DNA of 59,659 nucleotides, filler included. It is 8 parts of 8 records of this genome, joined end to end, with 100 filler letters (N's around TTAATTAATTAA, not from the genome) between each part and the next. Parts side by side here need not be neighbours in the genome. Positions count along the whole stretch, not along the records: positions 1 to 6,749 come from SRR31147125_15608; 7 more parts are not named here. One strand, given 5' to 3'. Positions 1 to 53,585 of the stretch are shown here, piece after piece. Position numbers and translations under genes: made by a program. How positions within the stretch are numbered: the first letter of the stretch is position 1; every line of letters starts with the position of its first letter. The notes under the pieces were generated by a model. That model was not told the DNA's origin, ran no database searches, and was given only the letters and a program-made list of their open reading frames with translations.

Positions 1-232
1 AAAAAAATTCCCCACTCCTTGGAATCATTTAGAAGCAGGTATTATGTTTGGATTAGGATTACCTCTTTTAGTTTTCAAAGAAGAAGGAATAACTGGTGGC
101 ATTTTTGATAATGGCGTTGCAGATGTTTATGTACATCAGTTACCTAATCCTGATGAAATATCAAATAATTCGAAGTTAAAAGAAGTCATAATTAAATGGC
201 AATCAAATGTTCGAGAAAAATACTATAAATAG
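1..232 (+). CDS. TIR/nucleoside-deoxyribosyltransferase-like protein, C-terminal fragment (5' truncated)
   Basis: Frame is open from nt 2: KKFPTPWNHLEAGIMFGLGLPLLVFKEEGITGGIFD. The W-x-x-x-E helix followed by a hydrophobic LPLLVF strand matches the catalytic-Glu region of TIR/NDT folds. Confidence 0.6.
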   Translation, partial: KKFPTPWNHLEAGIMFGLGLPLLVFKEEGITGGIFDNGVADVYVHQLPNPDEISNNSKLKEVIIKWQSNVREKYYK

Positions 233-252
233 CAAAGGGTTGATGAAAACAT

Positions 253-684
253 ATGACTGATGAAGAATATATTGAAATTCGAGTGAAAAATCAAATTGAT
301 TGGTACAACTCAAAAAGCAAGAAGAATAAGAATTGGTATTACACTTTACGAATTATTGAAGTAATTGCAGCTGTATCTATACCATTTCTCATCAATTATA
401 TTGGATCAGGTAGTGTTATAAAACTCATCATTGGCATTTTAGGTATTATTATAACAATCATTGCTTCAATAATTGGGATCTTCCATTTCCATGAAAAATG
501 GATTGAGTATAGAACAACTTGTGAATCCCTTAAGCATGCTAATTATTTATTCCAAACCAAGACGAGTCCATACAATGGTGAAGAACCCTTTTCATTATTT
601 GTCGAGCAAATAGAGCATCAGGTATCAAAAGAGAATTCAAAATGGAATCAATATACTTGTTCTGAAAAAACACGGAGAGCATAA
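253..684 (+). CDS. DUF4231 / SLATT-family two-TM membrane effector
   Basis: QIDWY..KS..NK..Y, two hydrophobic helices, then WIEYRTTCESLK..YLF....PY, the SLATT/DUF4231 signature. Confidence 0.85.
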   Translation: MTDEEYIEIRVKNQIDWYNSKSKKNKNWYYTLRIIEVIAAVSIPFLINYIGSGSVIKLIIGILGIIITIIASIIGIFHFHEKWIEYRTTCESLKHANYLFQTKTSPYNGEEPFSLFVEQIEHQVSKENSKWNQYTCSEKTRRA

Positions 685-1272
685 ATGGGGCATAAATGCT
701 TTATTTCTTTTAAAACTGAAGATATGGATTATAAAAAGTATATCCAAGAAAAATTAAAGATTGATATGATTGATAAATCTTTAGATTCTCCGATCAACTC
801 TACAGATGAGAACTACATTATGCAGAAAATAAGACAAGAGTATTTGTCTGATTCAACCGTAACGATTCATCTTATTGGAGAAAGAAGCTCTGAAAATTTA
901 GGCTGGCATGAACAGCGATACATCAAAAGAGAGCTACAGGGTTCGCTTTACAATGCTCCTCCTAAAAACACTAGAAGTGGTATCTTAGGAATTGTACTTC
1001 CACAAATGAAAAACAAAATATTTTTTGGAACATATCAGTGTGCTCTATGCGGGAATAATCATGATGGTGTTAACGTTAAAGATTATACTATCAAAGAATT
1101 CAGTTATAATTTCTATATCCCAAATGGAGGGAAATGTTCCCATTCTGAAGATGAGAGGTATTGTGTTCTGGCAAACTGTGACGAATTTATCAAAAATCCT
1201 GAAATATTTATTGAAAAAGCTTATCAAAAAAGAAGCTCCCCAATTGCTAATAAGGTTAAAGTAAAAGGATAA
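685..1272 (+). CDS. ThsB-like (MTH538/DUF1863) TIR-domain protein with Cys/His-rich insertion
   Basis: HKCFISF, IRQEYLSDSTVTIHLIG, YIKRELQGSL (catalytic Glu), GILGIVLP. ATG directly follows the upstream TAA. Confidence 0.85.
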   Translation: MGHKCFISFKTEDMDYKKYIQEKLKIDMIDKSLDSPINSTDENYIMQKIRQEYLSDSTVTIHLIGERSSENLGWHEQRYIKRELQGSLYNAPPKNTRSGILGIVLPQMKNKIFFGTYQCALCGNNHDGVNVKDYTIKEFSYNFYIPNGGKCSHSEDERYCVLANCDEFIKNPEIFIEKAYQKRSSPIANKVKVKG

Positions 1273-1340
1273 AGTTCTGCAACTTTATTATGATATACAT
1301 TAATATTACTTTGCGATTGCCATGGTATAGCACAATTAAC

Positions 1341-1832
1341 GAGCCTGTAAGGTTTTCTGTGTAACTGGCATTCTTAATCTTGGGAAACCCTCTCCCCATA
1401 TTCCAACAAAAATCGATTCATAGCCGGTCCCCAATCCCGGATCGGCATGGTCCAACGCTTAGACGCTTCCTGTATCGCCAAATAGACAATCTTAATGGTT
1501 GATGTGTCATTGAGAAAGATCCTCCGGTTCTTAATCCACTTCCGAATGACACTGTTCAATAATTCAATAGCATTCGTGGTATAGATCACCTTCCTGATCT
1601 AATCAGGGTATTCATACATCGTAATCAGATTCTTTCAACTACGCTCCCACATTTTGCTGATCGCGCCATACTTGCTGTCCCATTTAACAGAGAACTCCAG
1701 CAGTTCAGCCCAGCTTCTTCAATCATCACTGAAGCATAGACCTTCTTCAAATCCTATGTCTCTGGTTGTTTGGCCCTTAGCATACAGCATGAGAATCTTG
1801 TCATCCAGACCGGCAAATCGTCGTTGGTGACA
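1341..1832 (-). mobile_element. IS256-family remnant (internally deleted, frameshifted transposase; one terminal inverted repeat left)
   Basis: Minus strand encodes HQRRFAGLDDKILMLYAKGQTTRDI fused to DLKKVY...KWDSKYGAISKMW...RKVIYTTNAIELLNSVIRK...RWTMPIRDW. IS256-type end gagcctgtaaggttttctgtgtaact at 1341-1366. Confidence 0.85.
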
Positions 1833-1957
1833 GCATAAACTGCTCAATCGACCCGAAGGGTTGGTGCGATTTTTGAGTGGAGGAACGATTAGTTCCGTAA
1901 CGGCCGAAGGTAAAAAATCGTGACAAAGATTGGGGCAGTTTCATGCGTTTGTTATAA
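1833..1957 (-). other. attC integron recombination site, truncated (R' box lost)
   Basis: Just after the TGA of the 3410-1959 gene, minus strand reads TTATAAC-AAAC-GCATGAAACTGCCCCAATC...GATTGAGCAGTTTATGC: R'', L'' with an extra base, and L'. IS256 sequence follows where the GTT box should be. Confidence 0.75.
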
Positions 1958-1958
1958 A

Positions 1959-3410
1959 TCAACTTAATGCAATATCTCGAAATCTCTCTTGTAATATATT
2001 TTCACAATAATCTATCCCACCTTTTTCATAATTCATTAGCATATTCAATAAATCGTTATCAACAATTGGAATTATCAGACCCCTTTGGTCATGGTATGTA
2101 TCACGACATCTTTTAATGAACTTTTCCATTTTATTAATATCTCTACAAAGAATAAGACCGAATTTACCACGATTAGGACTAAATCTACTTGAAATTTGAT
2201 CCAATTCAGGATTCTTTACATCTCTGGAATAGTTTTTACATTCAACGATTATAAATGGTGATGGAATTTGATATGTATTTACTATTCTGAAAAAGAATCC
2301 TGTTTCTGCTGCGTTATCAAAAGTGATATCGATTCTTTTTCTACCTTCATGGATTTCTCGTTCTTTGATAGGTGATGTAATATTAGGGTAGAAAAGCAGT
2401 TCCAAGATACCAACTGTCAGTTTATGGTAGCGACTTGCAGCTTCATTCCCTGGTTTTATTTCATCTATCTGTATAATTAAATGATCAATGATTTTTGTCA
2501 AAAGATCTGATGTTAACTCTTCATTTGAAATATTTCTAACTTGTTTCGTAGTATCTAATTTGAATTTTTCAAATATTTCAGGATACTTTTTTGTAAACGA
2601 TGCTAAATAATCTTTACTGATATCTGCAAGACTATTTCTTACGCTTTTCTTTGTAACATATTTCCTAGTGATTTTACCTTTTTTATTTCTCCTTACCTGA
2701 ACAAGTGAAGTATTTCTAGTAAGGTGATCCTCTTGAAGAAAATTGAGAACAAAATGTTGTAAATATTTCTCTGGAGTATAATCAGAAGAGTAGGATACAA
2801 TCCTTTTGGGAACAAGTAATACTTTATTACCATTAACTAAAGGGATACTGGAATATTCATTTTTCCACTCCTGATTCATTCTATCCCAAAAAAATCCTGA
2901 TAAAATTCCATCTTGAATAGGAATATTCCATAATTTACATTGATTTTGTGTATACTCTATCAAATGTTTTTTTATAATATTTGTTGTTAAGTCTGATATT
3001 TTATCTCTACCTACTCCATCAACAAATATTCTAAAGTCCTCAAGATCTTCAACAACACCAGTAGTCATTGCTTTACTTCTTACTAGATTATCAAAAATAT
3101 TAATTGTATCTTGAGGACCTACTCCTCGACCTTGAGATTTTCCTTTTGATAAACCTAAATGTGTCTCGTTAGGTTCTTTTAAATGAGAGAAAATGGCCTT
3201 AGCCTCATCAGGTCTATCATTTTTCAGTTTTTGAATTAGTATTGAAAAGAAGCTTTCGAGTGTTCGATTGGCATCAATTGCCCATTTAAAGTTACATAAT
3301 CCAAGATAATAAGGATCTAGAAATAATGGTGTATCTTTCTCAATATCAATATCTATGAAATCTAGTTCAAACTGAGTTCTTCGTAAATTGAAATATTCAC
3401 TAATTTTCAT
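1959..3410 (-). CDS. Uncharacterised protein with C-terminal Mrr-like PD-(D/E)XK nuclease domain (putative anti-phage)
   Basis: RIDITFDN...IVECKNY...ELDQ motif. True start is probably MKISEYF at 3410 (AGGAGG upstream), not the ORF-track start at 3446. Confidence 0.7.
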   Translation of the reverse strand: MKISEYFNLRRTQFELDFIDIDIEKDTPLFLDPYYLGLCNFKWAIDANRTLESFFSILIQKLKNDRPDEAKAIFSHLKEPNETHLGLSKGKSQGRGVGPQDTINIFDNLVRSKAMTTGVVEDLEDFRIFVDGVGRDKISDLTTNIIKKHLIEYTQNQCKLWNIPIQDGILSGFFWDRMNQEWKNEYSSIPLVNGNKVLLVPKRIVSYSSDYTPEKYLQHFVLNFLQEDHLTRNTSLVQVRRNKKGKITRKYVTKKSVRNSLADISKDYLASFTKKYPEIFEKFKLDTTKQVRNISNEELTSDLLTKIIDHLIIQIDEIKPGNEAASRYHKLTVGILELLFYPNITSPIKEREIHEGRKRIDITFDNAAETGFFFRIVNTYQIPSPFIIVECKNYSRDVKNPELDQISSRFSPNRGKFGLILCRDINKMEKFIKRCRDTYHDQRGLIIPIVDNDLLNMLMNYEKGGIDYCENILQERFRDIALS

Positions 3411-3435
3411 AGGATATTTTATCCTCCTCTTATTA

Positions 3436-3981
3436 CTATCTAGCAACTATAAAGTGATCTTCTTCTATTACTCCGTTTACTAAATAGTAAAGGATACAAT
3501 CGATTGCTCTTGGATTGTAGCAGTATGAAACAGTTAGTCCAAATAAGTAGTTGTAGTTTGGATCATTCAAGAATGCAAGAACCTTGTTCTTATCATGCAT
3601 AGAGCTGATTTCTTTTTTGGCTTCAATAACTAAAATATTTTTATACTCAAGATCATCTCTAGTTCGAGAATGAACAATAATATCTGGCCTTACATTTATT
3701 TCACGATTATTTACAACCAGTAATTTTAAATTGTTGTATCGCCTGTTATATTCAATATCTGTATAGTAGCCATTTAGTTCTGGATATTTAAGAATCTCAT
3801 CTTCAATATATTTAGCAAATCTGTGATTGATTGTTACTTCATGAAGTTTTCTGTTCAATTCTTTCGCATCTGATGAGATTCTTGGATATTCGATGATTTC
3901 ATTAGAGATAATATTAGAGTCTTTTTCAACTAGCTTTATAAGAGCATTTTCAATAACTCTTTTTATATCATCTTTTACCAT
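3436..3981 (-). CDS. Small PD-(D/E)XK nuclease-fold protein
   Basis: HEVTINHRFA...DIEYNR...RPDIIVH.R...NILVIEAKK...DKNK. Confidence 0.75.
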   Translation of the reverse strand: MVKDDIKRVIENALIKLVEKDSNIISNEIIEYPRISSDAKELNRKLHEVTINHRFAKYIEDEILKYPELNGYYTDIEYNRRYNNLKLLVVNNREINVRPDIIVHSRTRDDLEYKNILVIEAKKEISSMHDKNKVLAFLNDPNYNYLFGLTVSYCYNPRAIDCILYYLVNGVIEEDHFIVAR

Positions 3982-3998
3982 ATAAAAATCCTTTGTAT

Positions 3999-4058
3999 AT
4001 ATAACACCGCTAATCAGCCGCGCGGCTTTTTGTGTCGGCTGAATTTACCTTGTTTGGT
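3999..4058 (-). other. attC integron recombination site (60 bp, complete)
   Basis: Minus strand: ACCAAAC-AAGGT-AAATTCAGCCGACACAAAAAGCCGCGCGGCTGATTAG-CGGT-GTTATAT. AAC and GTT cores, L'' with one extra base, located between a stop codon and the next RBS/ATG. Confidence 0.85.
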
Positions 4059-4060
4059 TT

Positions 4061-5143
4061 TTATATATTTTTATCTATTTCACTATATTCTCGAATTGTT
4101 TTAATCAAAAGCTCAACAGCATTTTCTGTATTACCATCTGTCATGTCTAACCATTGGATATTTCGGAGTAAGGGAGGTACTTCTGCTTGTTCAATTAAAA
4201 CAGGCAAAATGCGAGGTCCGACAGGACTTGATATTTGCCGATGCATTACATGTTGTAGTTCTTGTTTGGCCCCGCCACGAACTGAGTTGGGTGATATGAA
4301 GAATATTATAAAGTCTGCTGAATCTAAACTACGCTCAAATTCTAAGAACCATTGACTATCTGGCTTAAGGTTGGACCCTTCAAACAGTATTAGTCTAATA
4401 CCTGAAGCCTTTAATCCTTCGGCAACTTTTTTTACTATTTCTATATCAGCATAAGCATAACTCAGAAAGACTGAAGCTGCCAAATGCCCCAAGTCTGATA
4501 AAGCATTTGATACAGTCCTCCGAATAGATGAAAGCAGGGTTTCCTCGGAAAGTCCTTCTTCAATAGCGTTCGTTACTATACTTTGTATTTCACTCATTAG
4601 ATGAACAGGGGAACCAACATGTGCCTTTTCTCTTGCCTTGGCAGATTCTTCGATATCCCGAATTGTACGGCTAAGATCTGCAGCAACCTGAACTGATATG
4701 TCGTTTTTGCTTTCAAATGGCGCTACTGTATGTCGGGTTTGTAGTGTTGTCTTCCAAGCTTCGAGAAGTCTTAATTTATCAGGGTCACGCTCCATCATTT
4801 TCGGGAGTATTGGAACATTCTCTCCTCGAATATACACAAGGCAAGGTTTCTTTAAACGATAACCTTCACGATACTCTGCTTCCGAAAAAGATATTTCCAT
4901 TTCTGGAACAATTGATCCATAACGGTGGCCGAGAATCACAACTAGAATATTGCTTCTTCGTACTTCAGCCAAACAGGTTTCTATTGGTTGATTTGCTCGA
5001 GCCCCAAAAAACTCCATTGAATCGTGCTCTAATTGCAAGCGGCGTATTGCATCAAGCACACCCTCACGTTCCTCGCTAAGGTCACTAAATGTGCTACAGA
5101 CAAATACTGTTAACTTGGAGTTCATTTTTATTTCCCTGTTCAC
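4061..5143 (-). CDS. DUF4062 + TIR_2 two-domain protein
   Basis: N-term VFVCSTFSDLSEER...CLAEVRRSNILVVILGHRYGS...SEAEY (DUF4062). C-term VFLSYAYAD...SADFIIFFISPNS...KQEL...ILPVLIE...VPPLLRNIQWLD (TIR_2). Confidence 0.85.
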   Translation of the reverse strand: MNREIKMNSKLTVFVCSTFSDLSEEREGVLDAIRRLQLEHDSMEFFGARANQPIETCLAEVRRSNILVVILGHRYGSIVPEMEISFSEAEYREGYRLKKPCLVYIRGENVPILPKMMERDPDKLRLLEAWKTTLQTRHTVAPFESKNDISVQVAADLSRTIRDIEESAKAREKAHVGSPVHLMSEIQSIVTNAIEEGLSEETLLSSIRRTVSNALSDLGHLAASVFLSYAYADIEIVKKVAEGLKASGIRLILFEGSNLKPDSQWFLEFERSLDSADFIIFFISPNSVRGGAKQELQHVMHRQISSPVGPRILPVLIEQAEVPPLLRNIQWLDMTDGNTENAVELLIKTIREYSEIDKNI

Positions 5144-5240
5144 ATAATGGGTTACAGTTATTTTACATCATCATTCACACATAGATTCTCTTCAGTCTAA
5201 CTTCCTCATCCATAAGGTGCAGGTTCTTTCCATCGATGTA

Positions 5241-5247
5241 GCCTAAC
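5241..5247 (-). other. Candidate attI-like core (GTTAGGC) at the head of the cassette array
   Basis: GTTRRRY core about 100 nt upstream of the first cassette ORF, in an AT-rich context with no attC hairpin. Matches the reverse complement of that cassette's R'' (GTTTGGT) at 5/7. Confidence 0.35.
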
Positions 5248-5530
5248 ATAATTTATTTGCCCTTTTATTTAATAATATCACTGATTTATTATTGCTTTTT
5301 ATGTGTTTGTATATAAACCCAGCATACACTCTGTTATGTTTATTTATTGCTGTATAACTCATGATATAGCTTAGTTCTTTTTCTTTATCATTTTCAGATT
5401 GTTTCCCGTAATTACCAGATTATTCCAAATACCTGTTATATATAAATTTTAAGTCTGTATCTGTAAAAGTCAAGCAGTCTTTTCACAGGGATTACAAATC
5501 TGTTTATACTTATATGAAGGAATTATCATC

Positions 5531-5758
5531 ATGAAAATCCCAAATTTATCAGCTGAAACCTTTGCAGTAATTGAGAAATATAATAAGCACTTTCCAAAGA
5601 AATATATGCTGGGAACATTAGATTTAAATCCTGATCTTGAAGAACAGGATTTGGTTAAATATCTTGAGGAAGCCATTGATACGAATAAAACAATCACATT
5701 CCGGAATAAGAAAGTTTATTTAAATCCAAAAAAATTACCTAATGGTATTCTATTGTAG
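5531..5758 (+). CDS. Hypothetical protein
   Basis: 75-aa ORF with GAAGGA RBS and plausible composition; no recognised motif. Confidence 0.55.
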   Translation: MKIPNLSAETFAVIEKYNKHFPKKYMLGTLDLNPDLEEQDLVKYLEEAIDTNKTITFRNKKVYLNPKKLPNGILL

Positions 5759-5797
5759 AATTTAAAACCTAAACATTTTGCTTTTTATTGTATTTGA

Positions 5798-6749
5798 TTA
5801 GATATCTAATATTAAAGCAGCTTTATTGAGAAAAATCTCACAATTATGTTGATAAATTATATCAGGATTTTTTTCTTTTAACTTATCAACTTTTACAACA
5901 AACATATTTAGTTGATTATTCTTACTTTTTATATCTTTTTTTGGATTAAAATGGTTTAAGAATTCAATTAAAATCGTCAAACCGTAAGCGTCAAAATTCT
6001 CTATTTTATCTATCATATTATATTTAATTACATCAGAAAAGAAACTGCTTCTATACTTATAATTATTAAGCTTTGCTAGTGATATCTTGTTATTACTATT
6101 GGCTGATAAATAGTAATTAATATCATCTTGTCTTATATTTGATTTATTAAGTGATATACATTCTTTTAATGAATTAATTATCTTGATATAAGTAGGATCA
6201 TTCAGTAGTTCATTTTCATTACTAAAATTATATGTATTTGGATAAGTGAAATCATCTAACAAATTATGAGTCAATGCATATTTCTTTATTCCCCCAATAA
6301 ATTGATTTTCAACTTTTTCATTATATAATTTTCCTTTTAAAAAGTAAAAATATTCATAAAGGATTATAGTTTCATCAATATCGTATTTCCCATCATATAA
6401 ATACGTAAGTATCTCCTGAACAACTGCTGTAAACTCAGCATAACTTAAGTGATTATAATTTTTTAATGTATTTAAACATTTAGTCCAAATTGGGGTATGG
6501 TCAACAAACTTATCATTAATCTCATCATTAAAATATGATTTATCTAAAAATCCGGTAGTTATGAATTCAAAAACAGAGTACAAAAAAATGAAATCCAGTC
6601 CTTTATTCTGGACATAATTATTTATTATTTGTCTTCCTATAGTATCTTCTATTTTTTGATTCTTTTTTCTTTTTAATGAATCTGATAAACCGTGATAAGC
6701 TTGTAATTCAAGTTCAGTTGTAACTGATTCAGAATCCTTTTCGATATTT
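5798..6749 (-). CDS. C-terminal part of a large protein, possibly a KAP-family P-loop NTPase (5' truncated)
   Basis: Frame is open to the contig edge. FIFLYSVFEFITTGFLDK...EI resembles helical tails of KAP NTPases, but no Walker motifs are in view. Confidence 0.45.
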
Positions 6750-6849
6750 NNNNNNNNNNNNNNNNNNNNNNNNNNNNNNNNNNNNNNNNNNNNTTAATTA
6801 ATTAANNNNNNNNNNNNNNNNNNNNNNNNNNNNNNNNNNNNNNNNNNNN
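6750..6849. other. Artificial contig linker; also at 14954-15053, 20697-20796, 27090-27189, 33837-33936, 46577-46676, 53486-53585
   Basis: Identical 100-nt N-run/TTAATTAATTAA/N-run spacers with stops in all frames; GC content and gene content change across them. Confidence 0.98.
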
Positions 6850-6895
6850 CAAGCGTAAGGCTTGCTGGGTGTGCTCCAGCGAGCACGACTTTGAC

Positions 6896-7372
6896 TTAAA
6901 GCTTCTGAAGCAAAACTACGCAATAAGACTTAACTCCTTCACCATTACCAGTAAAACAAAGCTTCTCTTCAGTAGTTGCTTTTACACTTACTTGTGATAT
7001 ATCAATTCCAAGTTCACGAGCAATATTTTCTTGCATTGCTGGTATATGTGGCTTAAGCTTTGGTTGTTGCATTACTATGATTGAATCAAGGTTTATTACT
7101 TCATATCCCTCTTTTTTAATAAGCTCATTTACATGTTGAAGGAGTTTAATACTTGATATTCCTTTATACTTCGGATCGGTGTCAGGAAAGTGTTTTCCAA
7201 TATCACCTAATGCAAGTGCACCTAACATTGCATCCATTATTGCATGAAGAAGTACATCTGCATCTGAGTGGCCTAATAACCCCTTCTCGTAAGGAATGTT
7301 TACACCTCCGAGAATTAAATCTCTATTTTCAACTAATTTATGCACATCATAACCATTACCTATTCTTAACAT
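6896..7372 (-). CDS. ispF: 2-C-methyl-D-erythritol 2,4-cyclodiphosphate synthase
   Basis: [42 protein letters not shown] precedes ATG at 7372. Confidence 0.97.
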
Positions 7373-7389
7373 TTGATAACTCCTCAAAA

Positions 7390-8415
7390 TTATTTATATT
7401 TTTTCTCTCTAATCTCCAATTGATGTTTCTCATAAATCTCGTCATAAAACTCTTTTATCTCATCTATTGTTACAGTTGCTGTTCCTATCCTACCTACTGC
7501 AACACCTGCTGCTGTATTAGCTATTTTTGCAGCCTCTTCATACGATGCTCCACATGTAAGTGCCAATGTATAGACAGATATCACTGTATCTCCTGCTCCT
7601 GTTACATCAAATACTTCTTTTGCAAATGTAGGAATATGTTCAACCCTGTCCTCCATGAAAATTGACATTCCTTTTTCACTTCTAGTCATAATAAGGTGAT
7701 CTAACTCAAGTGTTTCTCTAATCTCTTTTCCTATTTCCAAAACATCCTCGTCACTTGATGGTATCTCTTTCCCAACACACTCACTTGATTCTTTCAAGTT
7801 GGGAGTCATCGATGTGGCTCCCTTATAATTAAGTGAATTTGATGGTTTTGGATCAACTAGTACAATTTTATTTTTTTCTTTTGCTAAAGCTATAATTTTT
7901 TTGGCTAAAGATTCGGTTAAGACTCCCTTGTCATAATCAGACATAATTATACCGTCCACCTCAGCTATTTTAGCAGTAAAAAGTAGTAATAACTTATTCT
8001 CAACCTCTTCTGAAATAGGGTGTTTCTTCTCCCAATCCAATCTAAGAAGTTGCTGATTTCCAGCTAAAACTCTTTTTTTCATTATTGTAGGACGATCTTT
8101 ACTTCGAATTATTCCAGTAGACTCTACACCTTTTCCAGAAAATTCCTTAAGTAACTTGTCAGCATTTTCATCCTTACCAACAACACCGAAAGAGCATACT
8201 TTTACACCAAGTGTTGAAAGGTTATTTACAACATTTGCTGCACCGCCAAGTACAAAAGTTTCTTTCTCAACATTTACAACTGGAACTGGTGCCTCTGGAG
8301 ATATTCTAGTTACGCTACCAACAATATACTCATCTAACATCATATCTCCAATTACAGCTATCTTTTTTTCCGAAAACTTTTCTAATATACTATTTAATCT
8401 ATCTTGACTAATCAT
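7390..8415 (-). CDS. rfaE1: D-glycero-beta-D-manno-heptose-7-phosphate kinase (RfaE domain I)
   Basis: [38 protein letters not shown]. Confidence 0.93.
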
Positions 8416-8496
8416 ATTTTCCTCCATTTAATACATTTTACCTCAACGCCTAAAATAAGGGTAAATTTTATCTTATAAATTATATCAGTAGAAAGA

Positions 8497-8522
8497 AAAA
8501 AACAAGCATGCGCTTGTTTTTT
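8497..8522. terminator. Intrinsic terminator downstream of the pilus operon
   Basis: aaaaaacaagc-atgc-gcttgtttttt perfect hairpin with A/T tails. Confidence 0.7.
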
Positions 8523-8527
8523 ATTAT

Positions 8528-10258
8528 TTAATTCTTAAATATTTTTTCTCTTATATTTGCACTACTATTTTTAAAGCCACTATCTGAAATTTCTGCGTTT
8601 GAATTTTCTGCATGAACAATTTCAGCCTTTATCTGAATAAATAGATCTTTGGAATTCTCAACATAAGTATCGTATTTAAATAAACGTCCTATCAGTGGTA
8701 ACTTTGAGAACAGTGGTACTGAGTAATTATTTTCCGTTACTGATTTTCTCTTTAATCCTCCGATGAAAACAACTCCACCATCTTGAACTCTCACAATTGT
8801 TTGAGTACTATTTTTCTGTTCTGCAGCAGAAATTTTCTGCTCTAAGTCTTCATCAGAAACTGTACTTGTAGAAGTCTTAAAAGAACTTACCTCAAGAGAA
8901 ATATTTAAAATAATTGTATCACCTTCTTCTCTACCTTGTCGAATAATTGGCTTTACACTTAATGTCGTCCCTGCTTCTTTATATTGCGGTTCCGTTGTTT
9001 TATTTCCATCATCATCTGTTTCTGTCGTCTCTCCAACATACTCCTCTTCAGTAATTGTTATCGTTGCTTCTTCACCATTTACTGTTACTAGAGCTGGCAT
9101 GGCTCCTACTGTAACATCATTTGTATTTCGAAGTAAGTTTAATGTCGCTGAAAATACTTCATTTGAACTACTAAGATATTTTGTAAAAGTAGCTACAGGA
9201 TTTCCTGTTATAACCGACACACTCGTTGTACTATCTGTTTCATCTGCGCCATCTTGATACGACCAATCTATTCCCAAGTTTTGTGAAATTGAATCACTTA
9301 ATTCAAGTACCTGAGCCGTTATTCTAACTTGACTAACGGGGATATCCAGTTCATCAATTATCTTCATTGCAGTATCTATATTTCCTTTACTACCTTTTAA
9401 TATCACTAAACTTTGCTTCTCTACAGATGTTACATCTATATTTTCAATTGAGGCAGTAACTACATCTCTTACTTCATCTGGATGTACATGCTTTAAAAAT
9501 ATTTTCTGCGTCTCTTCAATTTGCCCCTTTTCACTAATTACTTTTCCAAGAGCTTTTTTCTCTTCAATTGAGGACTCCTGTGTTTCTTCAGCCACATTTT
9601 CCTTCGTTAATTCTAATTTTTGCGCCTTATCTGAGCTTAGTGTTAGGTTAATGTTAAGTGTTTGACCAGCTTCAATCTCTAGGATATCTCCATTTTCTCC
9701 ATACTCCTCTGATGACACTTTTATAATATATGTACCTGGATCAATATTCTCAATTATATAAGTTCCACCAGCTTCTGCATTTACTGATTTTATAATTTTA
9801 TTATCTTTAATCAAACTTACCGTTGAGTTCTCGATACCTGTTTCAGATTCAGCTCTTACAACTCTACCTATAATTTGTCCTACAACCTCTGTTTTAGATT
9901 GAGTGCTTTTTTCTAAGATCATAATGTTGTTTACTTCTCGGATTTCTAAACTATTAGCTAACATAATAGCTTGTAAAATCTCTTTTAAACTTTGACCTCT
10001 TACGAAAAATAGATCAATGGGATCATTTTTTATTGATGACTCAGCTATTATCGTTATTCCACTTGTTTTAGATATTAAACTAAGTGCATCTGATAAATTT
10101 ACATCTTTAAAATCTAATTCTTGTGGATATACAATTCTTTCTAATTTTTCTGTTACATCTGCTATCAAAATAGTAAAACAAAATAGGAATAATGTTATTA
10201 GTATTCCTATTCTCGATTTTTTTGCTCTTTTATACAAAACTATGTCACCTTCCCTCAT
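8528..10258 (-). CDS. pilQ: PilQ/GspD-type secretin with inserted carboxypeptidase-regulatory-like domain
   Basis: N0/STN-like LDFKDVNLSDAL, N3 ...IIDELDIPVSQVRITAQVLE, secretin core (GTTLSVKP, VFIGGL, VPLFSKLPLIGRLFK). Last gene of pilMNO(P)Q. Confidence 0.85.
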   Translation of the reverse strand: MREGDIVLYKRAKKSRIGILITLFLFCFTILIADVTEKLERIVYPQELDFKDVNLSDALSLISKTSGITIIAESSIKNDPIDLFFVRGQSLKEILQAIMLANSLEIREVNNIMILEKSTQSKTEVVGQIIGRVVRAESETGIENSTVSLIKDNKIIKSVNAEAGGTYIIENIDPGTYIIKVSSEEYGENGDILEIEAGQTLNINLTLSSDKAQKLELTKENVAEETQESSIEEKKALGKVISEKGQIEETQKIFLKHVHPDEVRDVVTASIENIDVTSVEKQSLVILKGSKGNIDTAMKIIDELDIPVSQVRITAQVLELSDSISQNLGIDWSYQDGADETDSTTSVSVITGNPVATFTKYLSSSNEVFSATLNLLRNTNDVTVGAMPALVTVNGEEATITITEEEYVGETTETDDDGNKTTEPQYKEAGTTLSVKPIIRQGREEGDTIILNISLEVSSFKTSTSTVSDEDLEQKISAAEQKNSTQTIVRVQDGGVVFIGGLKRKSVTENNYSVPLFSKLPLIGRLFKYDTYVENSKDLFIQIKAEIVHAENSNAEISDSGFKNSSANIREKIFKN

Positions 10259-10694
10259 TTACCTTTAAGTGTATTGTATTTCCACTTGTTATCTCTCTGA
10301 TTTCAATCCCATCTTCATAAGGACTTAAAAAATATTTTTTCTTATCCACTTTTATTATTGTATTTCCTAAAATTACTTTTCTTTTAGTAGTTTCCACTGA
10401 AGATGAATTTTTTTCCTTAAAGAAAATTATACATCCCCACTTTCTATCTTTTCTGATAATGGTCTCAACTTTAATAAAAATATTATTAAGCTCATTTCCA
10501 GTTTTGACTGTACCACCAGTCCCAGTTTTCTTTATAACTTCACTTTTGAAAAAGTTTTTATCTTCCTGAAACTTCTTTTCCGCTTCTTTGAAAACTTCGT
10601 CACTTATATAATCTTTCATTGGGTTAACTTTGTTCGCAAATGTAAATACTGAAATAAGTAAAAATGACATAAAAATAAAAAATCGTTTATTCAA
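10245..10694 (-). CDS. Exported protein in the PilP position
   Basis: Signal peptide; lies between pilO-like and secretin genes. Confidence 0.5.
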   Translation of the reverse strand: MNKRFFIFMSFLLISVFTFANKVNPMKDYISDEVFKEAEKKFQEDKNFFKSEVIKKTGTGGTVKTGNELNNIFIKVETIIRKDRKWGCIIFFKEKNSSSVETTKRKVILGNTIIKVDKKKYFLSPYEDGIEIREITSGNTIHLKVNEGR

Positions 10695-11325
10695 ATCCTA
10701 TGTCACCACCCTCTTCAATAAAATATGCACCTACTTTAAAGCTAACTTGTACTAAACTTCTACCTTTACTATCTCGACCACTTTGAGTTAATTGAACCCC
10801 TGCGCCACGCATAGTTATTAAGAAATTTGAATTCTCTAGATAATATAAAAGTTTAGATATATTTGAAACCGTTCCTCTAACAATGTATGGGGTATACTTT
10901 TTCTTATAGCCCTCTTTATTCTCAGCTACCTCCACTCGACCAATAGCTTTTACATCTACGTCCAGGTACCTAGCTAAATCATCAATCATAAATTTTAAGC
11001 TTGTTTCATCTTCTAAACTTGAGTTTTCAAACTTTATTTTCAGCAAATCTAAATCTTCTTTTTGCTCTTGGTATATTGCAAATTGCGCATCATACTTTCT
11101 CTTCTCCTTCGTATAGGTTGTTTTGACTACTTGAAGGCTTTGACTGAGCTGTTCAATCTGTTTATTCCTTTCTCTAATTTTAACTAATGGGAGTACTACT
11201 GATGGAACTAAGCATCCAATAATTACGACTATTAAGGCAACGATTGCTATGATTTTAATCTGCTTATCTGAAAGTTCGGCTCTCAGGTCAATATCAAGAT
11301 TTATCTCTTTTCCGAATACTTCCAC
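10687..11325 (-). CDS. pilO: PilO-like pilus alignment protein
   Basis: Single TM, coiled coil, C-terminal GTVSNISKLLYYLEN; synteny. Confidence 0.7.
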   Translation of the reverse strand: MEVFGKEINLDIDLRAELSDKQIKIIAIVALIVVIIGCLVPSVVLPLVKIRERNKQIEQLSQSLQVVKTTYTKEKRKYDAQFAIYQEQKEDLDLLKIKFENSSLEDETSLKFMIDDLARYLDVDVKAIGRVEVAENKEGYKKKYTPYIVRGTVSNISKLLYYLENSNFLITMRGAGVQLTQSGRDSKGRSLVQVSFKVGAYFIEEGGDIGFE

Positions 11326-11347
11326 TATCTTTCCTCCTAAAACTGTT

Positions 11348-11914
11348 TTAGTTTATTTTTAACTGCATATCATACGAAAAACTTGATATTTCATTTTTTC
11401 CGTCTACTATTTTTTCAATATAATCTGCTTCAATATTTATAAATTTTCCACTATTTTTCAAATTTCGTTCAAACTGAAATACATTTTCATAAGAGTTTAA
11501 TTTTAACTTTTTATTTATTTCAGCTTTTCCACTGAATCTAATATTATCGCCTTCATAGGTTAAGCTATGAAGGTAAACATTTGCTGGTACTTCTTCTTGA
11601 ATAGTGTATAAAACCTCTGATATTCTTAAGTTTTGTTGGCTAAAAATATCTTCAACAATTTGAATACTATTTGTTAAATCTGGTATTTCAGTCATTTTTT
11701 TCCTAACTTCTTCTGTCTGTTTTTTCTTTTGTTTTATATCATTATTAAGTTTTGCTATCTCCTGCTGCTTTTTACTTATAATTCCTTTTAAGTACATATT
11801 TCCTGATCCCAAAATAAGTAGAACTAAAATCACCAAAACACCAGCAACTTTTGCCAGATTTTTGAATAACAATTTATATTTATACTCTGGAGTCAGAAAA
11901 TTAATATCAATCAT
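11348..11914 (-). CDS. pilN: PilN-like protein
   Basis: MIDINFL, TM, coiled coil, VPANVYLHSL...FSGKA...FERNLKNS. Confidence 0.85.
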   Translation of the reverse strand: MIDINFLTPEYKYKLLFKNLAKVAGVLVILVLLILGSGNMYLKGIISKKQQEIAKLNNDIKQKKKQTEEVRKKMTEIPDLTNSIQIVEDIFSQQNLRISEVLYTIQEEVPANVYLHSLTYEGDNIRFSGKAEINKKLKLNSYENVFQFERNLKNSGKFINIEADYIEKIVDGKNEISSFSYDMQLKIN

Positions 11915-12963
11915 CTATTTCACCTCTTCAATTACATTTCCTAATAAACTTGCAGACAATTCAGTCTCTAAAAGACTCTCTGCGCCAATTAAATAGTTAA
12001 TGTATGTAAAATCTAAAACTTCCACCTCTAACTCTCTTTGTAAAACTTGTTTAAACCCTTTTAAAAGAGTTGTTCCACCGGTAAAGTAAATTTTATCGAT
12101 ACCAGGCACTCTCTCATGACTGACATAAAATTCTGAAGACACTCTAAGCTGTTTCTCCAGTTGTTTGATAATGTCTGCTATCTCCATAAATAACTGTTGA
12201 TCTTTTGGGTCAACTGCAGTTTCAAATGTCTCTTCTGCAATTTCAAGGCTTTTCTTCATATTTTCAGCTTTTTCATAATCTAATTGGTAAATCCCTTCAA
12301 TGATATTGTTTATATCATTTCCACCAATTGCAACAATTCTCTGTAATTTAATAAAACCATTTTTTTCAATAAAAATTTTAGTTGCCTCTGCTCCAATATC
12401 AACCACCATTATGCTCTCTTCTGTTTCGATAGCATCTTTTTCTTTTTGCTTTTGCAAAAAGTTATACACTGAGACGAAATCCGGAACTATTTTTAAAACA
12501 GTTACTTTTAAACTGTCAAAAAGCTCTAATAAATTTTCAACTCTTGATTTTCTAATTGTAATAGCTATTATTTCTTCAGCTTCCGTCCCTAACTTTAAGC
12601 TAATATAATCTGTTAAAAACTCTTCACTATCATAATTTGGAATTAATTCTTCCAATTCTGTCTCAATTAATACTTTTTTTCCTTTTCATCAAGAAGAGGA
12701 ACATTTAAAAATTTAACTACAAAATCCTGAACTGGAAGAGATAACACCACGTTTTTATTTTTTAACTTTAACTCCTCAACAAGCTCTTTAACTCTATCAC
12801 CAAAAATAATAAAATCCTGTACATTTCCATTAACTATTGTACCTGAAGTTAGTTCAATTTTTGAGATTTTTTCAACTTTTCCATTTTTCAGTACAAGGCC
12901 TTTAATTGAACTAGTTCCAATATCTAGGCTAGCATTTACTTTTAGTTTAAACACCTGTATCAC
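11915..12963 (-). CDS. pilM: PilM actin-like protein, split by an apparent -1 frameshift at T7 (12674-12680)
   Basis: LDIGTSSIK...LSLP in ORF 12667-12963; VDIGAEATK, GGND, FTGGTT in ORF 11915-12655. One extra A gives EKKVLIETELEE. Confidence 0.88.
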
Positions 12964-14953: not shown

Positions 14954-15053
14954 NNNNNNNNNNNNNNNNNNNNNNNNNNNNNNNNNNNNNNNNNNNNTTA
15001 ATTAATTAANNNNNNNNNNNNNNNNNNNNNNNNNNNNNNNNNNNNNNNNNNNN

Positions 15054-20674: not shown

Positions 20675-20796
20675 TATTTAGAAAGTCCAGAAAAAANNNN
20701 NNNNNNNNNNNNNNNNNNNNNNNNNNNNNNNNNNNNNNNNTTAATTAATTAANNNNNNNNNNNNNNNNNNNNNNNNNNNNNNNNNNNNNNNNNNNN

Positions 20797-27089: not shown

Positions 27090-27197
27090 NNNNNNNNNNN
27101 NNNNNNNNNNNNNNNNNNNNNNNNNNNNNNNNNTTAATTAATTAANNNNNNNNNNNNNNNNNNNNNNNNNNNNNNNNNNNNNNNNNNNNGCTGAACG

Positions 27198-33836: not shown

Positions 33837-33936
33837 NNNNNNNNNNNNNNNNNNNNNNNNNNNNNNNNNNNNNNNNNNNNTTAATTAATTAANNNNNNNN
33901 NNNNNNNNNNNNNNNNNNNNNNNNNNNNNNNNNNNN

Positions 33937-38650: not shown

Positions 38651-40107
38651 ATGAAGCTCTTTTTTAAATCTATCCTGTTTGTAGTTATAGCTGCAACCTT
38701 GTTTGCCTCTTGTAAGAAAGAACAAAAACGACCAAACTTTTTATTTGTCCCGGCGGACGATCAATCTCCATTCGACCTGAAAATTTACGATGCCAAATCT
38801 GTTTTGGAAACACCAAATATTGACAAATTGGCCGAAGGTGGAATCGTTTTTGAAAGTGCCCGTCATATGGGCTCAATGAATGGTGCTGTTTGTACACCTT
38901 CGCGCCACATGATTATGAGTGGACGTACAGTTTGGCACCTGCCTGCCAGTGCCGGTAAAATGGATAAAATTATGTGTCCCGACAGCCTGGAATTGGAAAC
39001 CATAGGCGCCGTGTTCAACAGGGCTGGTTACAAAACCATGCGTACCTGTAAAAAAGGGAATTCTTTCAGGGCTGCAAATAAGCAATTTTCGGTGGTGCAC
39101 GAAGCCGTAAAGCGTGGCGCAACAGATGAAACCGGTAGTGCCTGGCATGCCAAACATGTGTTAAACTACTTAAACGAAAGGAAAGCCAATCAGGATACCG
39201 ATCCGTTTTTTATTCATTTTGGTTTTTCACACCCACATGATGTTCGCAACGGAAAACCTGAACTTTTGGAGAAATATGGAGCTGTAAATCATACCAATCC
39301 CCATAGCCTTCCTCCGGCCAATCCAAAACAACCACCACTGCAGGATAATTATTTGCCGGCACATCCTTTTTCCACGGGCATGTTGGACTTCGTGATGAAG
39401 AACGCGTAAGTGGTGTTTGGAAGAACCGCGACGAGCAAACCATCAGAAACGAACTGGGGCGTGAGTATGCCTGCGACGAAAATATTGACATTCAGATGGG
39501 TAAGGTGTTGAAAAAGCTCGAAGAAATGGGCGAACTAGATAATACCTACATTGTTTATACTGCCGACCATGGAATCTCAATTGGCCGTCATGGTTTAACC
39601 GGAAAACAAAATCTTTATGAACATACCTGGCGCGTACCATTTATTGTAAATGGCCCCGGAATTGAAGCAGGAAAACGTGTGGAAGGAAATGTTTACTTGC
39701 TCGATTTACTTCCTACATTTTGCGATCTCGCAGGAATTGAAATCCCTAAAACCGTTCAAGGTAAAAGTTTTAAACCTATTTTAGATGGGGAGAAAGAAAG
39801 CATGCGCGATGTTATGTATGGCGTTTATGCCGGAGGTTCGAAACCTGGAATGCGCTGCGTGAAAAAAGGCGACTGGAAATTGATAAAATACGATTTGATG
39901 GATGGTACAATCCACGAAACCCAGTTGTTTAACCTGGCCGAAAATCCAAACGAATACTTGCCCGAACATGGCAAATCGGGTGAAATGGAAACCAACCTGG
40001 CTAACAATCCAAAGTACGTCGATAAATTGGCTGAAATGGAAGCTTTATTGCTGGAACAGATGGAGAAAAACGACGATCCTTATCGTTTGTGGGATCAGAA
40101 AAAATAA
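38651..40107 (+). CDS. S1 sulfatase lipoprotein; apparent -1 frameshift at T5 (39367-39371)
   Basis: FASC lipobox, CTPSR, HPHD; the frames join as HPFFHGHVGLRDEE; YTADHG, GKQNLYE. Confidence 0.9.
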
Positions 40108-46519: not shown

Positions 46520-46680
46520 GTTTTTTTTGTGAATCCAAGCGGGGAGGTGTCGAACTTTTTACAGGAAGATTATGAGNNNNNNNNNNNNNNNNNNNNNNNN
46601 NNNNNNNNNNNNNNNNNNNNTTAATTAATTAANNNNNNNNNNNNNNNNNNNNNNNNNNNNNNNNNNNNNNNNNNNNAGTC

Positions 46681-47547: not shown

Positions 47548-50500
47548 ATGACCAAACTTCAATACATAATAAAATCCTTTCTCCACTACTTTAAAGCTAA
47601 CTTGCTGGTGGCACTTGGAGTAGCAATCAGTACCATGGTTTTAACCGGTTCGTTGATTATTGGCGATTCGGTACGACATAGTTTAACACAGGCTACTTTT
47701 TATCGTTTGGGTGAAACAACGCACTTGGTTTCGGTGGTTGAAAGATATTTCAGACAGGAAATGGCTGCTGAAATTGAAGCCGATAATTCGTTAATAAAAG
47801 CCACGCCTATTTTATTGTTGGAAGGAATGGCGGTTGCCGATGGCGGACAGCAGCGGGCAAATAAAGTTCAGGTGATTGGTGTCGATTCCGATTTTTATGA
47901 AATTTCAAAAACTCCAATTCTTTCTGAACTTCAAAATAACGAAATAGCAATTAGTGAAAACCTCGCAGAGCGTTTGCAAAAAGGAGAGGGCGATAATATT
48001 CTCGTTCGAATAAAAAAGGCAAGCTTGATTCCGATGAATGCTCCTTTTGTTTCGGCTGAAGAGACTAGTGTGGCTTTACGCGCTACTATAAAAAAAGTAG
48101 TTACAAAAGAAGAGCTTGGCCGATTTAGTCTGAAAAATTCGCAAACAGCACCGTTTAATATTTTTGTGTCAATTGAACGCTTAAATCGTTTGATGGAATT
48201 TGAAGGCAAAGCAAATCAGCTTTTGATTTCTTCGGAGGCAGGAGCTGACGAAGTTGGTTTATCGGTAAAAAACTGTTTAACGCCAGCCGATGCAGGACTT
48301 TCCCTGAAAACCATTGAGGCAACCAACGAAATTGAAATCTCAACGGAGCGGGTTTTTATGGAAGAGAAAATTTCGGAAACGCTAAAGAAGTTACCGGAAG
48401 CGGAGATGATATTGACCTATTTTGTGAATGCGATTGAAAAGTCGGCGGTTGGCAGTAATCAGTCCACAGCCGACAGTCATCCTGAGCGTAGTCGAAGGAT
48501 GCAGCCTGTATCCAACAACAAATCACAACAAATCACAACAAATCACAACAAATCGCAAGCATTTTCAGCCAATCTCCATCAATCTCCATCCATCCCTTAC
48601 TCTTTCGTTTCCTCATTAAACTCTACACAACTTGAGGCTAATCAAATGCTCCTCAATCGCTGGGCTGCCGATGATTTAAATGTAAAAACAGGCGATAAAG
48701 TCACCCTAAAATACCTTGAAATTGGGCCATTGCGAAAGCTGGTTGATAAAGAATCTGAATTTATTGTAAAGGAAATTATTTCGATGGATTCAGAATTGGC
48801 AGATCCAACCCGTGTCCCTCATTTGCCGGGGCTTTCGGATGCCGGGCATTGCCGCGAGTGGGAAGCCGGTGTTCCCATTGATTTGGATGCCATTCGCGAA
48901 AAAGACGAAAAATATTGGGAGGATTACAAAGGAACTCCAAAAGCTTTTATTTCAACTGAAAAGGCGGTCGAAATTTGGTCGAATCGTTTTGGAAATTACA
49001 CGGCGGCGCGTTATCCTTCTGGTGTTTTCGATGAAGTAAAATACAATGAGATTTTTGCGCAAGAAATAAGTCCGGCTGATTTGGGAATGGCAATTGAACC
49101 CATTCGCGAACAGGGTGTTAATGCTGCGCAAAACGGTACCGATTTTAGTGGGCTTTTTATCGGGCTTAGCTTTTTTATTTTGGCTGCTTCAATTATTCTA
49201 ACGGCTCTGCTTTTCCGGTTTAATCTCGAAAATCGTTCGGCGCAGGTTGGCTTGTTGGCGGCACTTGGATTTCAGCAAAAACAGGTTCGTAGCTTTTATT
49301 TATGGGAAGGATTAGTGGTTTCGTTGTTTGGTGGAATTATCGGATTGATAGTCTCCGTTTTTTACACGCAGCTGGTATTTAAGATTCTCAATTCGCTGTG
49401 GTTCGAAATTGTTAGAACCAATGTGCTTGAAGTGAAAATTTACCCGGAGACCTTGGCGTTAGGCCTGGCAATTAGTTTGTTTGTTTCGCTTGTTGCGATT
49501 TTTATTTCTGTTCAGCGTTTTCAGAAAAGAAAAGCAGTCGAGCTTCAAAAACAAATTGTTGCCAAGTCTAATAAAACCAATTTAATTTACAAAATTATTT
49601 TATTCGTTTCCCTGGGGTTTGCAACAGGCATTTTAATCTCCGAAATTTCTTCCGACCAGTTAAATCCGTCTATGTTCTTTCTTTCTGGTGGATTTATGTT
49701 GCTGGGCTTGCTTTTATTGTTCCGGCAAATTATTCTTCAACAAGAATCAAAAAAGAAAGAGCTTCGGTTTAGTAGGTTAGCTCAAATTAATTTGTCGCGA
49801 AATATAAGCCGCTCGTTAACCGTGGTGATTTTGTTTGCGCTTGGAACTTTTCTGGTTGTTTCAACTGGTTCAAACAAGCTCGATTTGTTTGCCAATGCCC
49901 AGGAAAAGTCAAGCGGAACTGGCGGTTTTCTGTATTTTGCCGAAACAACCATGCCGGTTCTTTTCGATATTAATGATAAAGAAAAGCAAGCTGAAGAAGG
50001 TATCTACGAAGACTTTAATGTTGTTCAGTTTCGGAAGATTGAAGGCGACGATGCCAGCTGTTTAAACCTGAACCGCATTGCGCAACCTGCAGTTTTGGGC
50101 GTTAATCCTGAAGCATTGCAAGACCGGTTCTCATTTGCATCAAAATTAAAAGGTTTAGATGAAGATATTTGGCAAGCCTTGAATGAAGATTTTGACGATG
50201 GAACCATACCGGCCATTGCTGACCAGACTGTAATTCAGTGGGGACTGGGAATGAAAGTTGGCGATATTTTATTGTATCAGAATGAAGTTGGTGATACGCT
50301 CCGATTGAAACTGATTGCCGGAACTAAACCTTCCATTTTTCAGGGATTTGTAATTATTTCGAATAAACACTTTTTAAAAATTATCCCACCAGCAGCGGCT
50401 CTAACTTATTTTTAGTGGAAGGAAGTCCTGAAAATGAAAATGCAATAGGAGAGGAGCTGCAATCAGTATTTCGCGATTACGGTTGGGAAATGGAAAGCAC

Positions 50501-50921
50501 CGCTAAACGTTTGGTTGAATTCTATTCCGTAACTAATACTTATTTGTCGATATTTTTAGCGCTTGGTGCCTTGGGTTTAATTCTTGGAACAATTGGTTTG
50601 GCGGTAATTCTGGCTCGCACTATATTGGAACGCCGCCGCGAAATTGCCCTGATGCAAGCCGTTGGTTTCTCCGAAAGCTCGATTTTTAAAACGCTGGTAA
50701 CTGAATACTTAATTTTACTTTTTATCGGTGTTTTAATTGGATTTGTAACTGCAGTAGTTGCCACGCTTCCGGCCTTTTTATCTACTAATTCTGATGCTTC
50801 ATTTTCGACAGTTGCTTTGGTGGTCGCTTTAATTCTGGTTAATGGTTTGGCCTGGATTGTTGGCTTGTGTTGGTTTTCGCTGAAGAAAAAAGTTTTGGTT
50901 GCGGGATTGCGGGTGGAATAA
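47548..50921 (+). CDS. FtsX/MacB-like ABC permease; apparent -1 frameshift at A5 (50376-50380)
   Basis: GSLIIGDSVR..L, two TM blocks with R..QVGLLAALGF and ERRREIALMQAVGF; frames join as KNYPTSSGSNLFLVEG. Confidence 0.9.
48476..48590 (+). repeat. REP half-site plus 10-bp tandem repeats inside the permease ORF
   Basis: gtcatcctgagcgtagtcgaaggat (48476-48500), (acaacaaatc)x4 (48515-48554), (aatctccatc)x2 (48571-48590). Confidence 0.85.
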
Positions 50922-53485: not shown

Positions 53486-53585
53486 NNNNNNNNNNNNNNN
53501 NNNNNNNNNNNNNNNNNNNNNNNNNNNNNTTAATTAATTAANNNNNNNNNNNNNNNNNNNNNNNNNNNNNNNNNNNNNNNNNNNN

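Follow-up and report, generated by a model that had tools for sequence, protein, structure and literature searches.

Does the segment 1833-5247 of a 59,659-nt stretch of environmental draft-genome DNA (hereafter, the window) descend from an integron and, if so, how many gene cassettes does it hold, what do they carry and where is the integrase? A preliminary description, made without any tools, had read this segment as a cassette array without integrase, loaded only with defence-like cargo and delimited by two attC sites on the minus strand, one complete (3999-4058; site 1) and one lacking its R' box (1833-1957; site 2). Our analysis makes it reasonably probable that the segment is a fossilised piece of an integron array, with two cassettes, lying in a defence island on a short draft contig. 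Cassette A would consist of a single gene, for a protein with two NADase-type domains (DUF4062/NIR plus TIR), with its own functional-looking attC, site 1. Cassette B would open at the site 1 crossover, carry the genes for a small PD-(D/E)xK nuclease and a DUF8370/PDC-M36A-like protein, and end in an attC stripped of its spacer and R' box by a deletion that reached into a neighbouring IS256 element and took its 5' part. The window is composed of eight contig pieces split by seven 100-bp artificial joints of the form N44-TTAATTAATTAA-N44; hence, it is a pseudomolecule of unordered contigs, and neighbourhood across the joints is meaningless. The segment sits on the first piece (1-6749), whose right end is cut by the joint at 6750-6849 and whose left end runs off the window.

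Read on the minus strand, site 1 is laid out as an R'' box (ACCAAAC), a spacer of 5-6 nt, an L box, a 15-nt loop, L', a second spacer and an R' box (GTTATAT). The AAC of R'' pairs with the GTT of R', and each box shows one mismatch to the consensus (RYYYAAC and GTTRRRY, respectively). The site begins 2 nt past the TAA stop codon (4063-4061) of the DUF4062-TIR gene, and its predicted crossover lies between G4005 and T4004. For its evaluation we built three successive attC covariance models, R1 (11 sites), R2 (17 sites) and R3 (32 sites), which are our own and not that of IntegronFinder. The seed was an integron integrase (IntI; 375 bits against TIGR02249) from the phylum of the nearest genomes, which are two metagenome-assembled genomes (77-80% identity) picked via the RlmN protein encoded on another contig of the window. 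This IntI was used to fetch plasmid integrons (class 1 arrays, and the arrays of Kovacikia, Thiodictyon and Diaphorobacter), in which the training attCs were located by coordinates, by the generic R''/R' consensus and by folding; of the R3 sites, 19 belong to arrays linked to intI and 13 to metagenomic arrays. With R3, site 1 was matched over its full length at 23.3 bits (E 0.0025), the runner-up on both strands of the 59.6 kb reaching 10.6 bits, and it was the sole significant match in the window; E-values from our shortened calibrations may be about five-fold off. In the R3 alignment, stems of 3 bp and 6 bp make up the L box, each followed by a bulged base (T and A, respectively); this is the aadA-type geometry, with T as the first extrahelical top-strand base, where the reference attCs mostly have C. 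AttCs that had not been used in training scored 18.5-27.8 bits when taken from metagenomic arrays, and 18.6-34.3 bits in the case of seven sites of plasmid pHRM2a and two sites of an E. coli class 1 integron. Thus, the score of site 1 falls within the range of untrained array attCs (18.5-34.3 bits).

The strongest single result for site 1 is plain BLAST homology. In a search of plasmids, the site aligned over 55 nt with an attC of pHRM2a (87% identity, E 1e-9), a plasmid on which six places match, and over 64 nt (83% identity, E 5e-8) with an attC of an intI1 integron, where it separates qacEdelta1 from the last cassette. The latter match (positions 3997-4055 of locus L113, from NZ_AP024115.1) lies on a clinical E. 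coli plasmid, and the last cassette there encodes a SAM-dependent methyltransferase. Moreover, a few low-depth contigs of a public run, X1, are identical to the window, and most of the 29 contigs from this run that were aligned to the window match only about 4001-4056, at approximately 85-95% identity and with unlike flanks on both sides. The summed depth over the site 1 repeat was 198 and 84, against at most 11 elsewhere, and the loose-end consensus beyond position 4045 contains GTTAGGC, which corresponds to the canonical R'' box GCCTAAC on the top strand. Since many of these contigs share about 4001-4056 in unrelated flanks, site 1 belongs to a repeated attC family that occurs in many contexts.

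A repeat in many genomic contexts would also suit a repetitive extragenic palindromic (REP) or miniature inverted-repeat transposable element (MITE), and the folding energy of site 1 is unremarkable on its own (z -1.6 and -2.1). Both points speak for an explanation with no integron at all, in which the two sites are chance or REP-like palindromes of an AT-rich defence island. We regard this explanation as highly improbable, given that the model match of site 1 is full length with both bulges, that the site is homologous to an attC beside intI1, that homologous genes carry canonical attCs, always on the strand of the gene, and that the loose-end consensus of run X1 shows a canonical R box. Hence, we take site 1 to be a genuine attC, at exactly the coordinates at which it had first been noticed; here the preliminary description had recognised a real attC, and the conclusion it drew was broadly right.

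The gene that ends at site 1 further connects the locus to integrons. Its product carries an N-terminal DUF4062 domain (85.3 bits; cut-off 24.7) and a C-terminal TIR_2 domain (80.9 bits) according to Pfam; translation likely starts at ATG 5125-5123, and the open reading frame (ORF) as listed begins at GTG 5143. A search at E <= 1e-10 returned 456 homologues (the best one 76% identical, 354 aa), many of them on short contigs, and the named ones span several phyla. Our scan of metagenomes with the cassette A gene yielded 80 loci, in which R2 found 18 attC matches in 12 loci, 18/18 on the strand of the gene; R3 added sites but no additional loci. The preliminary description had agreed in advance that it should be abandoned if neither site were matched by a covariance model and homologous genes were never followed by attC-like hairpins; apart from the match at site 1, we found an attC (E <= 0.01) within 250 nt downstream of 8 of the 44 near-full-length homologues with at least 150 nt of downstream sequence, and within 250 nt upstream of 3 of 43. 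For this gene, the second of these conditions is thus clearly contradicted. The attC behind the homologue in locus L037 shares 39 of 60 positions with site 1. Judged by these neighbourhoods, the DUF4062-TIR gene is a recurrent and frequent integron cassette. An integron-cassette origin of site 1 together with this gene therefore appears well supported, because the model hit, the homology to attCs of both intI-linked and intI-less arrays and the attC-flanked homologues all point to it. In one metagenomic locus (L080, 196-3518) we noted five attC matches, one of which (3389-3518) lies inside the span of a DUF4062-TIR homologue; this gene may be interrupted or in two pieces.

DUF4062 (NIR) was shown to be a TIR-like anti-phage NADase in three 2026 preprints, whose main texts present Swarozyc (10.64898/2026.05.01.722283), Evangelion (10.64898/2026.06.25.731849) and Avs2-NIR/Vulcan/Vesta (10.64898/2026.09.04.749371). 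As far as those main texts describe them, the cassette A protein resembles these NADases in its N-terminal DUF4062, in the conserved aromatic and acidic-Tyr motifs, in being encoded by a single gene and in residing in a defence island, but differs in its C-terminal TIR_2, in place of which the published proteins have auxiliary, HEAT or STAND modules. The word 'integron' does not occur in the main text of the three preprints, as distinct from their figures and supplements, which possibly list a TIR fusion. In our alignment, F14 and the S-E-A-E-Y motif (87-91) were invariant in 40/40 sequences and E295 was nearly invariant; the Glu of this motif is presumably equivalent to E87/E97/E108 of the published DUF4062 proteins. 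The structure model (predicted local distance difference test, pLDDT, 83.9) consists of two alpha/beta domains linked by helices. Foldseek matched it to the TIR folds of AbTir, PdTIR, BtpA and the SPARTA TIR (TMt 0.66-0.77, except for the 419-residue SPARTA TIR-APAZ chain, with 0.27) and to MilB-type nucleoside hydrolases (about 0.5).

The first gene of the putative cassette B, encoding 181 aa, is separated from the site 1 crossover by a 23-nt leader with a ribosome-binding site, AAAGGA. Residues D100, E120 and K122 of its product are invariant, and the structure model (pLDDT 91) has its best fold match in 3ijm, a restriction-endonuclease-like fold (E 4.9e-4; TMt 0.61). PADLOC returned a weak match to PD-Lambda-3_A (E 6.4e-6), and the protein had no match in the plasmid collection. 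The second product, of 483 aa (its ORF is listed from TTG at 3446), matches the PADLOC profile PDC-M36A (E 9.6e-48 over profile positions 7-271 of 457) as well as a second profile (E 1.1e-21), and contains a C-terminal D...E-C-K motif. At least 3872 homologues carry PF28123; the atlas clusters of this protein are annotated as DUF8370, with PDDEXK_3 on 11% of one cluster. A copy with 50.5% identity stands alone by a TOPRIM + UvrD pair on a Bacillus plasmid, and a scan of viral contigs with the DUF8370 protein gave one locus. NCBIfam gave no match for the cargo proteins. Families and folds suggest that the cargo most likely acts in anti-phage defence. Upon infection, cassette A may deplete NAD+ or take part in signalling, and cassette B may cleave nucleic acid; the earlier statement that the cargo is exclusively defence-like is reasonable on these grounds, provided that it is read as a deduction from families and folds.

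Whether cassette B was a cassette depends on site 2. This site is a long imperfect hairpin (fold z -3.2 and -2.9), whose R'' box, TTATAAC, begins 1 nt past the TGA stop codon (1961-1959) of the DUF8370 gene; as had been pointed out before, both sites thus start within 2 nt of a stop codon. The AAC of this box is followed, at canonical spacing, by 5 nt and an L box (CAT, bulged G, AAACTG) whose pairing partner, CAGTTT-ATG, lies another 90 nt along. Site 2 is the window's single instance of the strict architecture (AAC + 4-6 nt + 4 bp + bulge + 7 bp), for which the null mean is 0.51 per window. L' runs directly into the IS256 remnant, the transposase gene of which contains an internal deletion, is frameshifted and is presumably missing about its first 90 codons, as estimated against what we take to be typical IS256 transposases. 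As IS256 homology starts at about 1829 (H-Q-R-R-F codons), abutting site 2, the junction would represent a deletion that took the end of the attC along with the 5' part of the insertion sequence, and not a G/TT crossover. In an alignment with long attCs, site 2 resembled them at its 5' end only. Given that the two sites differ, it is plausible that they came from different donors, as had been suggested. Apart from the site 1 repeat, the summed depth of run X1 was 10-11 in bins 1876-2019 and 2596-2739; part of site 2 may perhaps recur elsewhere as well.

A number of results weigh against the reading of the segment as a two-cassette array. Some concern our models: R2 gave site 1 as its top window match, at full length and 14.0 bits, but with an E-value of 0.72; R1 produced merely a partial L-box match at this site (11.1 bits, E 1.9); and R3, roughly calibrated, was partly trained on attCs adjoining homologues of the cassette A gene. 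Rfam gave no match at gathering thresholds, with three chance-level matches (E 0.3-0.8) within 1-6749, and a search of 151 genomes of the nearest order with R2 returned no attC at E <= 0.001, under stricter filters and in a set without a positive-control genome. Others concern site 2, which has neither a spacer nor an R' box (GTTRRRY). The best covariance-model score there, with 3' truncation allowed, was -0.1 bits, for the L box only. No DNA relatives of site 2 were present in 72,556 plasmids or among the collected loci, and the 151 related genomes contained one 21-nt chance match, in AT-rich intergenic DNA with no hairpin evident by eye. Neither of the two loci with DUF8370 homologues (0/2; the viral contig and the Bacillus plasmid) has an attC beside the gene, and the family of the 181-aa protein comprises 23 proteins against at least 3872 for DUF8370. 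This approximately 170-fold gap implies that the cassette B genes are not a conserved or obligate pair. At the other end of the segment, no attC or attI structure was found ahead of the heptamers at 5195-5247, upstream of cassette A, and no attC model match lies beside them, and the cassette A leader of 69-121 nt is longer than the approximately 3-30 nt that we estimated from coordinates in three homologous cassettes. Finally, of 301 genomes of the phylum, a single one has an IntI above the family cut-off. The negative score of site 2 is not decisive, since the sensitivity of the models is limited: at E <= 1, R1 recovered 5 of 12 and R2 5 of 7 held-out reference attCs.

The absence at site 2 of an R' box, a model score and relatives is also what favours a single-cassette explanation, in which only site 1 is an attC. 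The hairpin at 1833-1957 would then be an unrelated 3' structure (e.g., terminator-like, transcript-stabilising or part of another decayed element), and the two nuclease-fold genes would be usual members of the defence island, their place downstream being a coincidence. This explanation is likewise favoured by the frequency of the looser L-box architecture (3 bp + bulge + 6 bp), of which the window has 13 copies vs 6.7 +/- 2.6 in the null, and by DUF8370 homologues that stand alone on Firmicute plasmids, outside integrons. We consider this explanation possible but rather doubtful, as the one strict architecture of the window is found exactly 1 nt past a stop codon, 2 kb downstream of site 1 and with its orientation; as the 181-aa gene lies 23 nt from the site 1 crossover with a ribosome-binding site alone between them; and as the R'' box TTATAAC is complementary in 6/7 positions to the first bases of cassette B itself. 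Regarding this last point, the preliminary description had counted 6/7 for G/TTATAT against TTATAAC and 5/7 for G/TTAGGC of cassette A against ACCAAAC; both counts are correct, but statistically weak in AT-rich DNA. Of the two sites it had proposed, the complete attC is borne out by the R3 score and by attC homology, and the truncated one keeps its hairpin, canonical spacing and position past a stop codon but has no model score and no relatives. Its 'array' comprises at most two cassettes, with the second attC truncated and model-negative, and the 5' end of cassette A only putative.

The GTTAGGC heptamer at 5247-5241 is a possible start of cassette A. Among the collected loci, no relatives of the region upstream of this cassette were found. 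The heptamer GTTAGRC occurs four times in the window, three times on the minus strand within 4145-5247, in or just upstream of the DUF4062-TIR gene; these clustered copies may be relics of earlier R' boxes or due to chance. We find it unlikely that the segment is the distal part of a complete integron, with its intI, attI and cassette promoter (Pc) either past 6749 or on a different contig, in which case the array would not lack an integrase. Given the leftward orientation of the cassettes, intI would be expected on the right, and there an artificial linker truncates the contig at 6749. Yet the 1.5 kb from cassette A to the contig end contain no attC match and no IntI, and tblastn with the 375-bit IntI found no match anywhere in the window, including its other seven contig pieces. 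In addition, neither of the two nearest genomes has an IntI (TIGR02249) above the cut-off, and the IS256 remnant and the truncated site 2 indicate decay. The claim of an array 'without integrase' thus stands for the window, and does not extend to the genome, given the concatenated contigs and the contig end at 6749. The two-piece tyrosine recombinases of the phylum were not counted as IntI because they lack positions about 180-235; many of them, e.g., G045:C26:40800-41615, match the IntI model at 2-180 and 235-315 only, and the stretch they lack is, we assume, the integron-specific insert.

Originally, an integron integrase would have recombined the folded bottom strands of the attCs to insert the cassettes. 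At present, with a single intact site and no visible integrase, the cassettes are most likely immobile and may be expressed from local promoters or by read-through. A scan for promoters and terminators did not rise above shuffled sequences (19 vs 18.6, and 2 vs 2.2, respectively).

Darracq et al. (bioRxiv 10.1101/2024.07.02.601686) use the terms CALIN, for clusters of attC sites lacking integron integrases, and SALIN, for their single-site counterparts. The segment resembles them in having attC(s) after promoterless ORFs, in one orientation and with no intI within reach. The difference is that only one site passes the covariance model and the second lacks R', so that under a two-site threshold the segment would not count as a CALIN; moreover, the absence of the integrase applies here to the visible contig pieces and not to the whole genome. 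A CALIN calls for at least two model-supported attCs on one strand, no more than about 4 kb apart; here the model supports site 1 but not site 2. Both terms were reportedly first defined in the IntegronFinder papers. We therefore describe the remnant as a decayed SALIN or CALIN of one to two cassettes.

The closest intact counterpart is pHRM2a (NC_012109.1; L112) of Desulforapulum autotrophicum HRM2, on which seven attC matches follow successive coding sequences on one strand (3752-12293 of locus L112). No IntI was found on the whole plasmid; hence, pHRM2a itself holds an integrase-less array. Its cargo includes an exonuclease, lnu(F), a TIR protein, a HEAT-repeat protein and HigB with its antitoxin, and a metallophosphoesterase coding sequence lies upstream of the first attC. 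This array is a CALIN rich in defence and toxin-antitoxin genes, carried by a mobilizable plasmid. Like our segment, it lacks an integrase, has attCs up to 87% identical to site 1 and includes TIR-domain cargo; unlike our segment, it is intact and longer, belongs to another phylum, resides on a mobilizable plasmid and contains an lnu(F) cassette, and its TIR gene is not a DUF4062-TIR fusion. Defence systems packaged as compact cassettes were presented, in two preprints, for sedentary chromosomal integrons (Darracq et al., 2024, 10.1101/2024.07.02.601686) and for mobile integrons (bioRxiv 10.1101/2024.07.02.601719), and the segment shares this packaging as far as its sequence tells. The strings 'TIR', 'DUF4062' and 'PDC' do not occur in the main text, supplements excluded, of Darracq et al.

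Integrase-less attC clusters and defence cassettes being already described, our results leave the knowledge of integrons as such unchanged. What is relatively new is the DUF4062-TIR gene as a frequent cassette, i.e., a concrete and widespread addition to the catalogue of integron-borne defence genes, and an attC family that joins environmental integrase-less arrays to a clinical class 1 integron. A single attC sequence family thereby links an environmental draft genome, the plasmid of a sulfate reducer and a clinical class 1 integron. If true, the sharing of this family between the integrase-less arrays of marine anaerobes and a clinical class 1 integron cassette would mark a route out of environmental cassette pools. 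We speculate, quite tentatively, that DUF4062(NIR)-TIR could be a distinct, undescribed single-gene anti-phage system spread mainly as an integron cassette across phyla, in which the two NAD-handling domains would have separate roles, e.g., one in sensing or signalling and one in executing, and that the attC family could mark a live route from the environment to mobile integrons. The case also illustrates that a tool-free reading is able to spot a true attC.

The coordinates of all features are collected in Table 1.

Table 1. Features on the first contig piece, and the artificial joints of the window
Feature	Coordinates	Strand	Basis
Partial ORF	2-232	+	
SLATT 2TM protein gene	253-684	+	NCBIfam SLATT_1, 129.6 bits
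ThsB-like TIR protein gene	685-1272	+	PADLOC ThsB, E 1.3e-13
Degenerate IS256/Mutator-family transposase	1374-1832	-	Pfam Transposase_mut, profile positions 332-377 of 379; stop-to-stop translations
attC-like half-site 2 (candidate)	1833-1957	-	R'' TTATAAC 1957-1951, L box with bulged G, long variable stem, L'
DUF8370/PDC-M36A-like gene, 483 aa (second gene of putative cassette B)	1959-3410	-	PADLOC PDC-M36A; PF28123
PD-(D/E)xK-fold protein gene, 181 aa (first gene of putative cassette B)	3436-3981	-	Fold match, invariant residues
attC site 1, complete	3999-4058	-	R'' ACCAAAC 4058-4052; R' GTTATAT 4005-3999
DUF4062 + TIR_2 gene, 354 aa (cassette A)	4061-5125	-	Pfam
Two R'-like heptamers, GTTAGAC 5201-5195 and GTTAGGC 5247-5241	5195-5247	-	Putative 5' end of cassette A
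ORF without family	5531-5758	+	
ORF without family	5798-6583	-	
Artificial joints	6750-6849, 14954-15053, 20697-20796, 27090-27189, 33837-33936, 46577-46676, 53486-53585	.	Linker pattern

A repeat search of the contig revealed nothing relevant. Left of the IS256 remnant, the plus-strand genes at 2-1272 form a second defence-like module, with no attC attached. Elsewhere in the window, the genes for pilM, a sulfatase and an FtsX-type permease are each split in two adjacent ORFs (11915-12963, 38651-40107 and 47548-50921, respectively), which may reflect frameshift errors of the draft assembly or pseudogenes.

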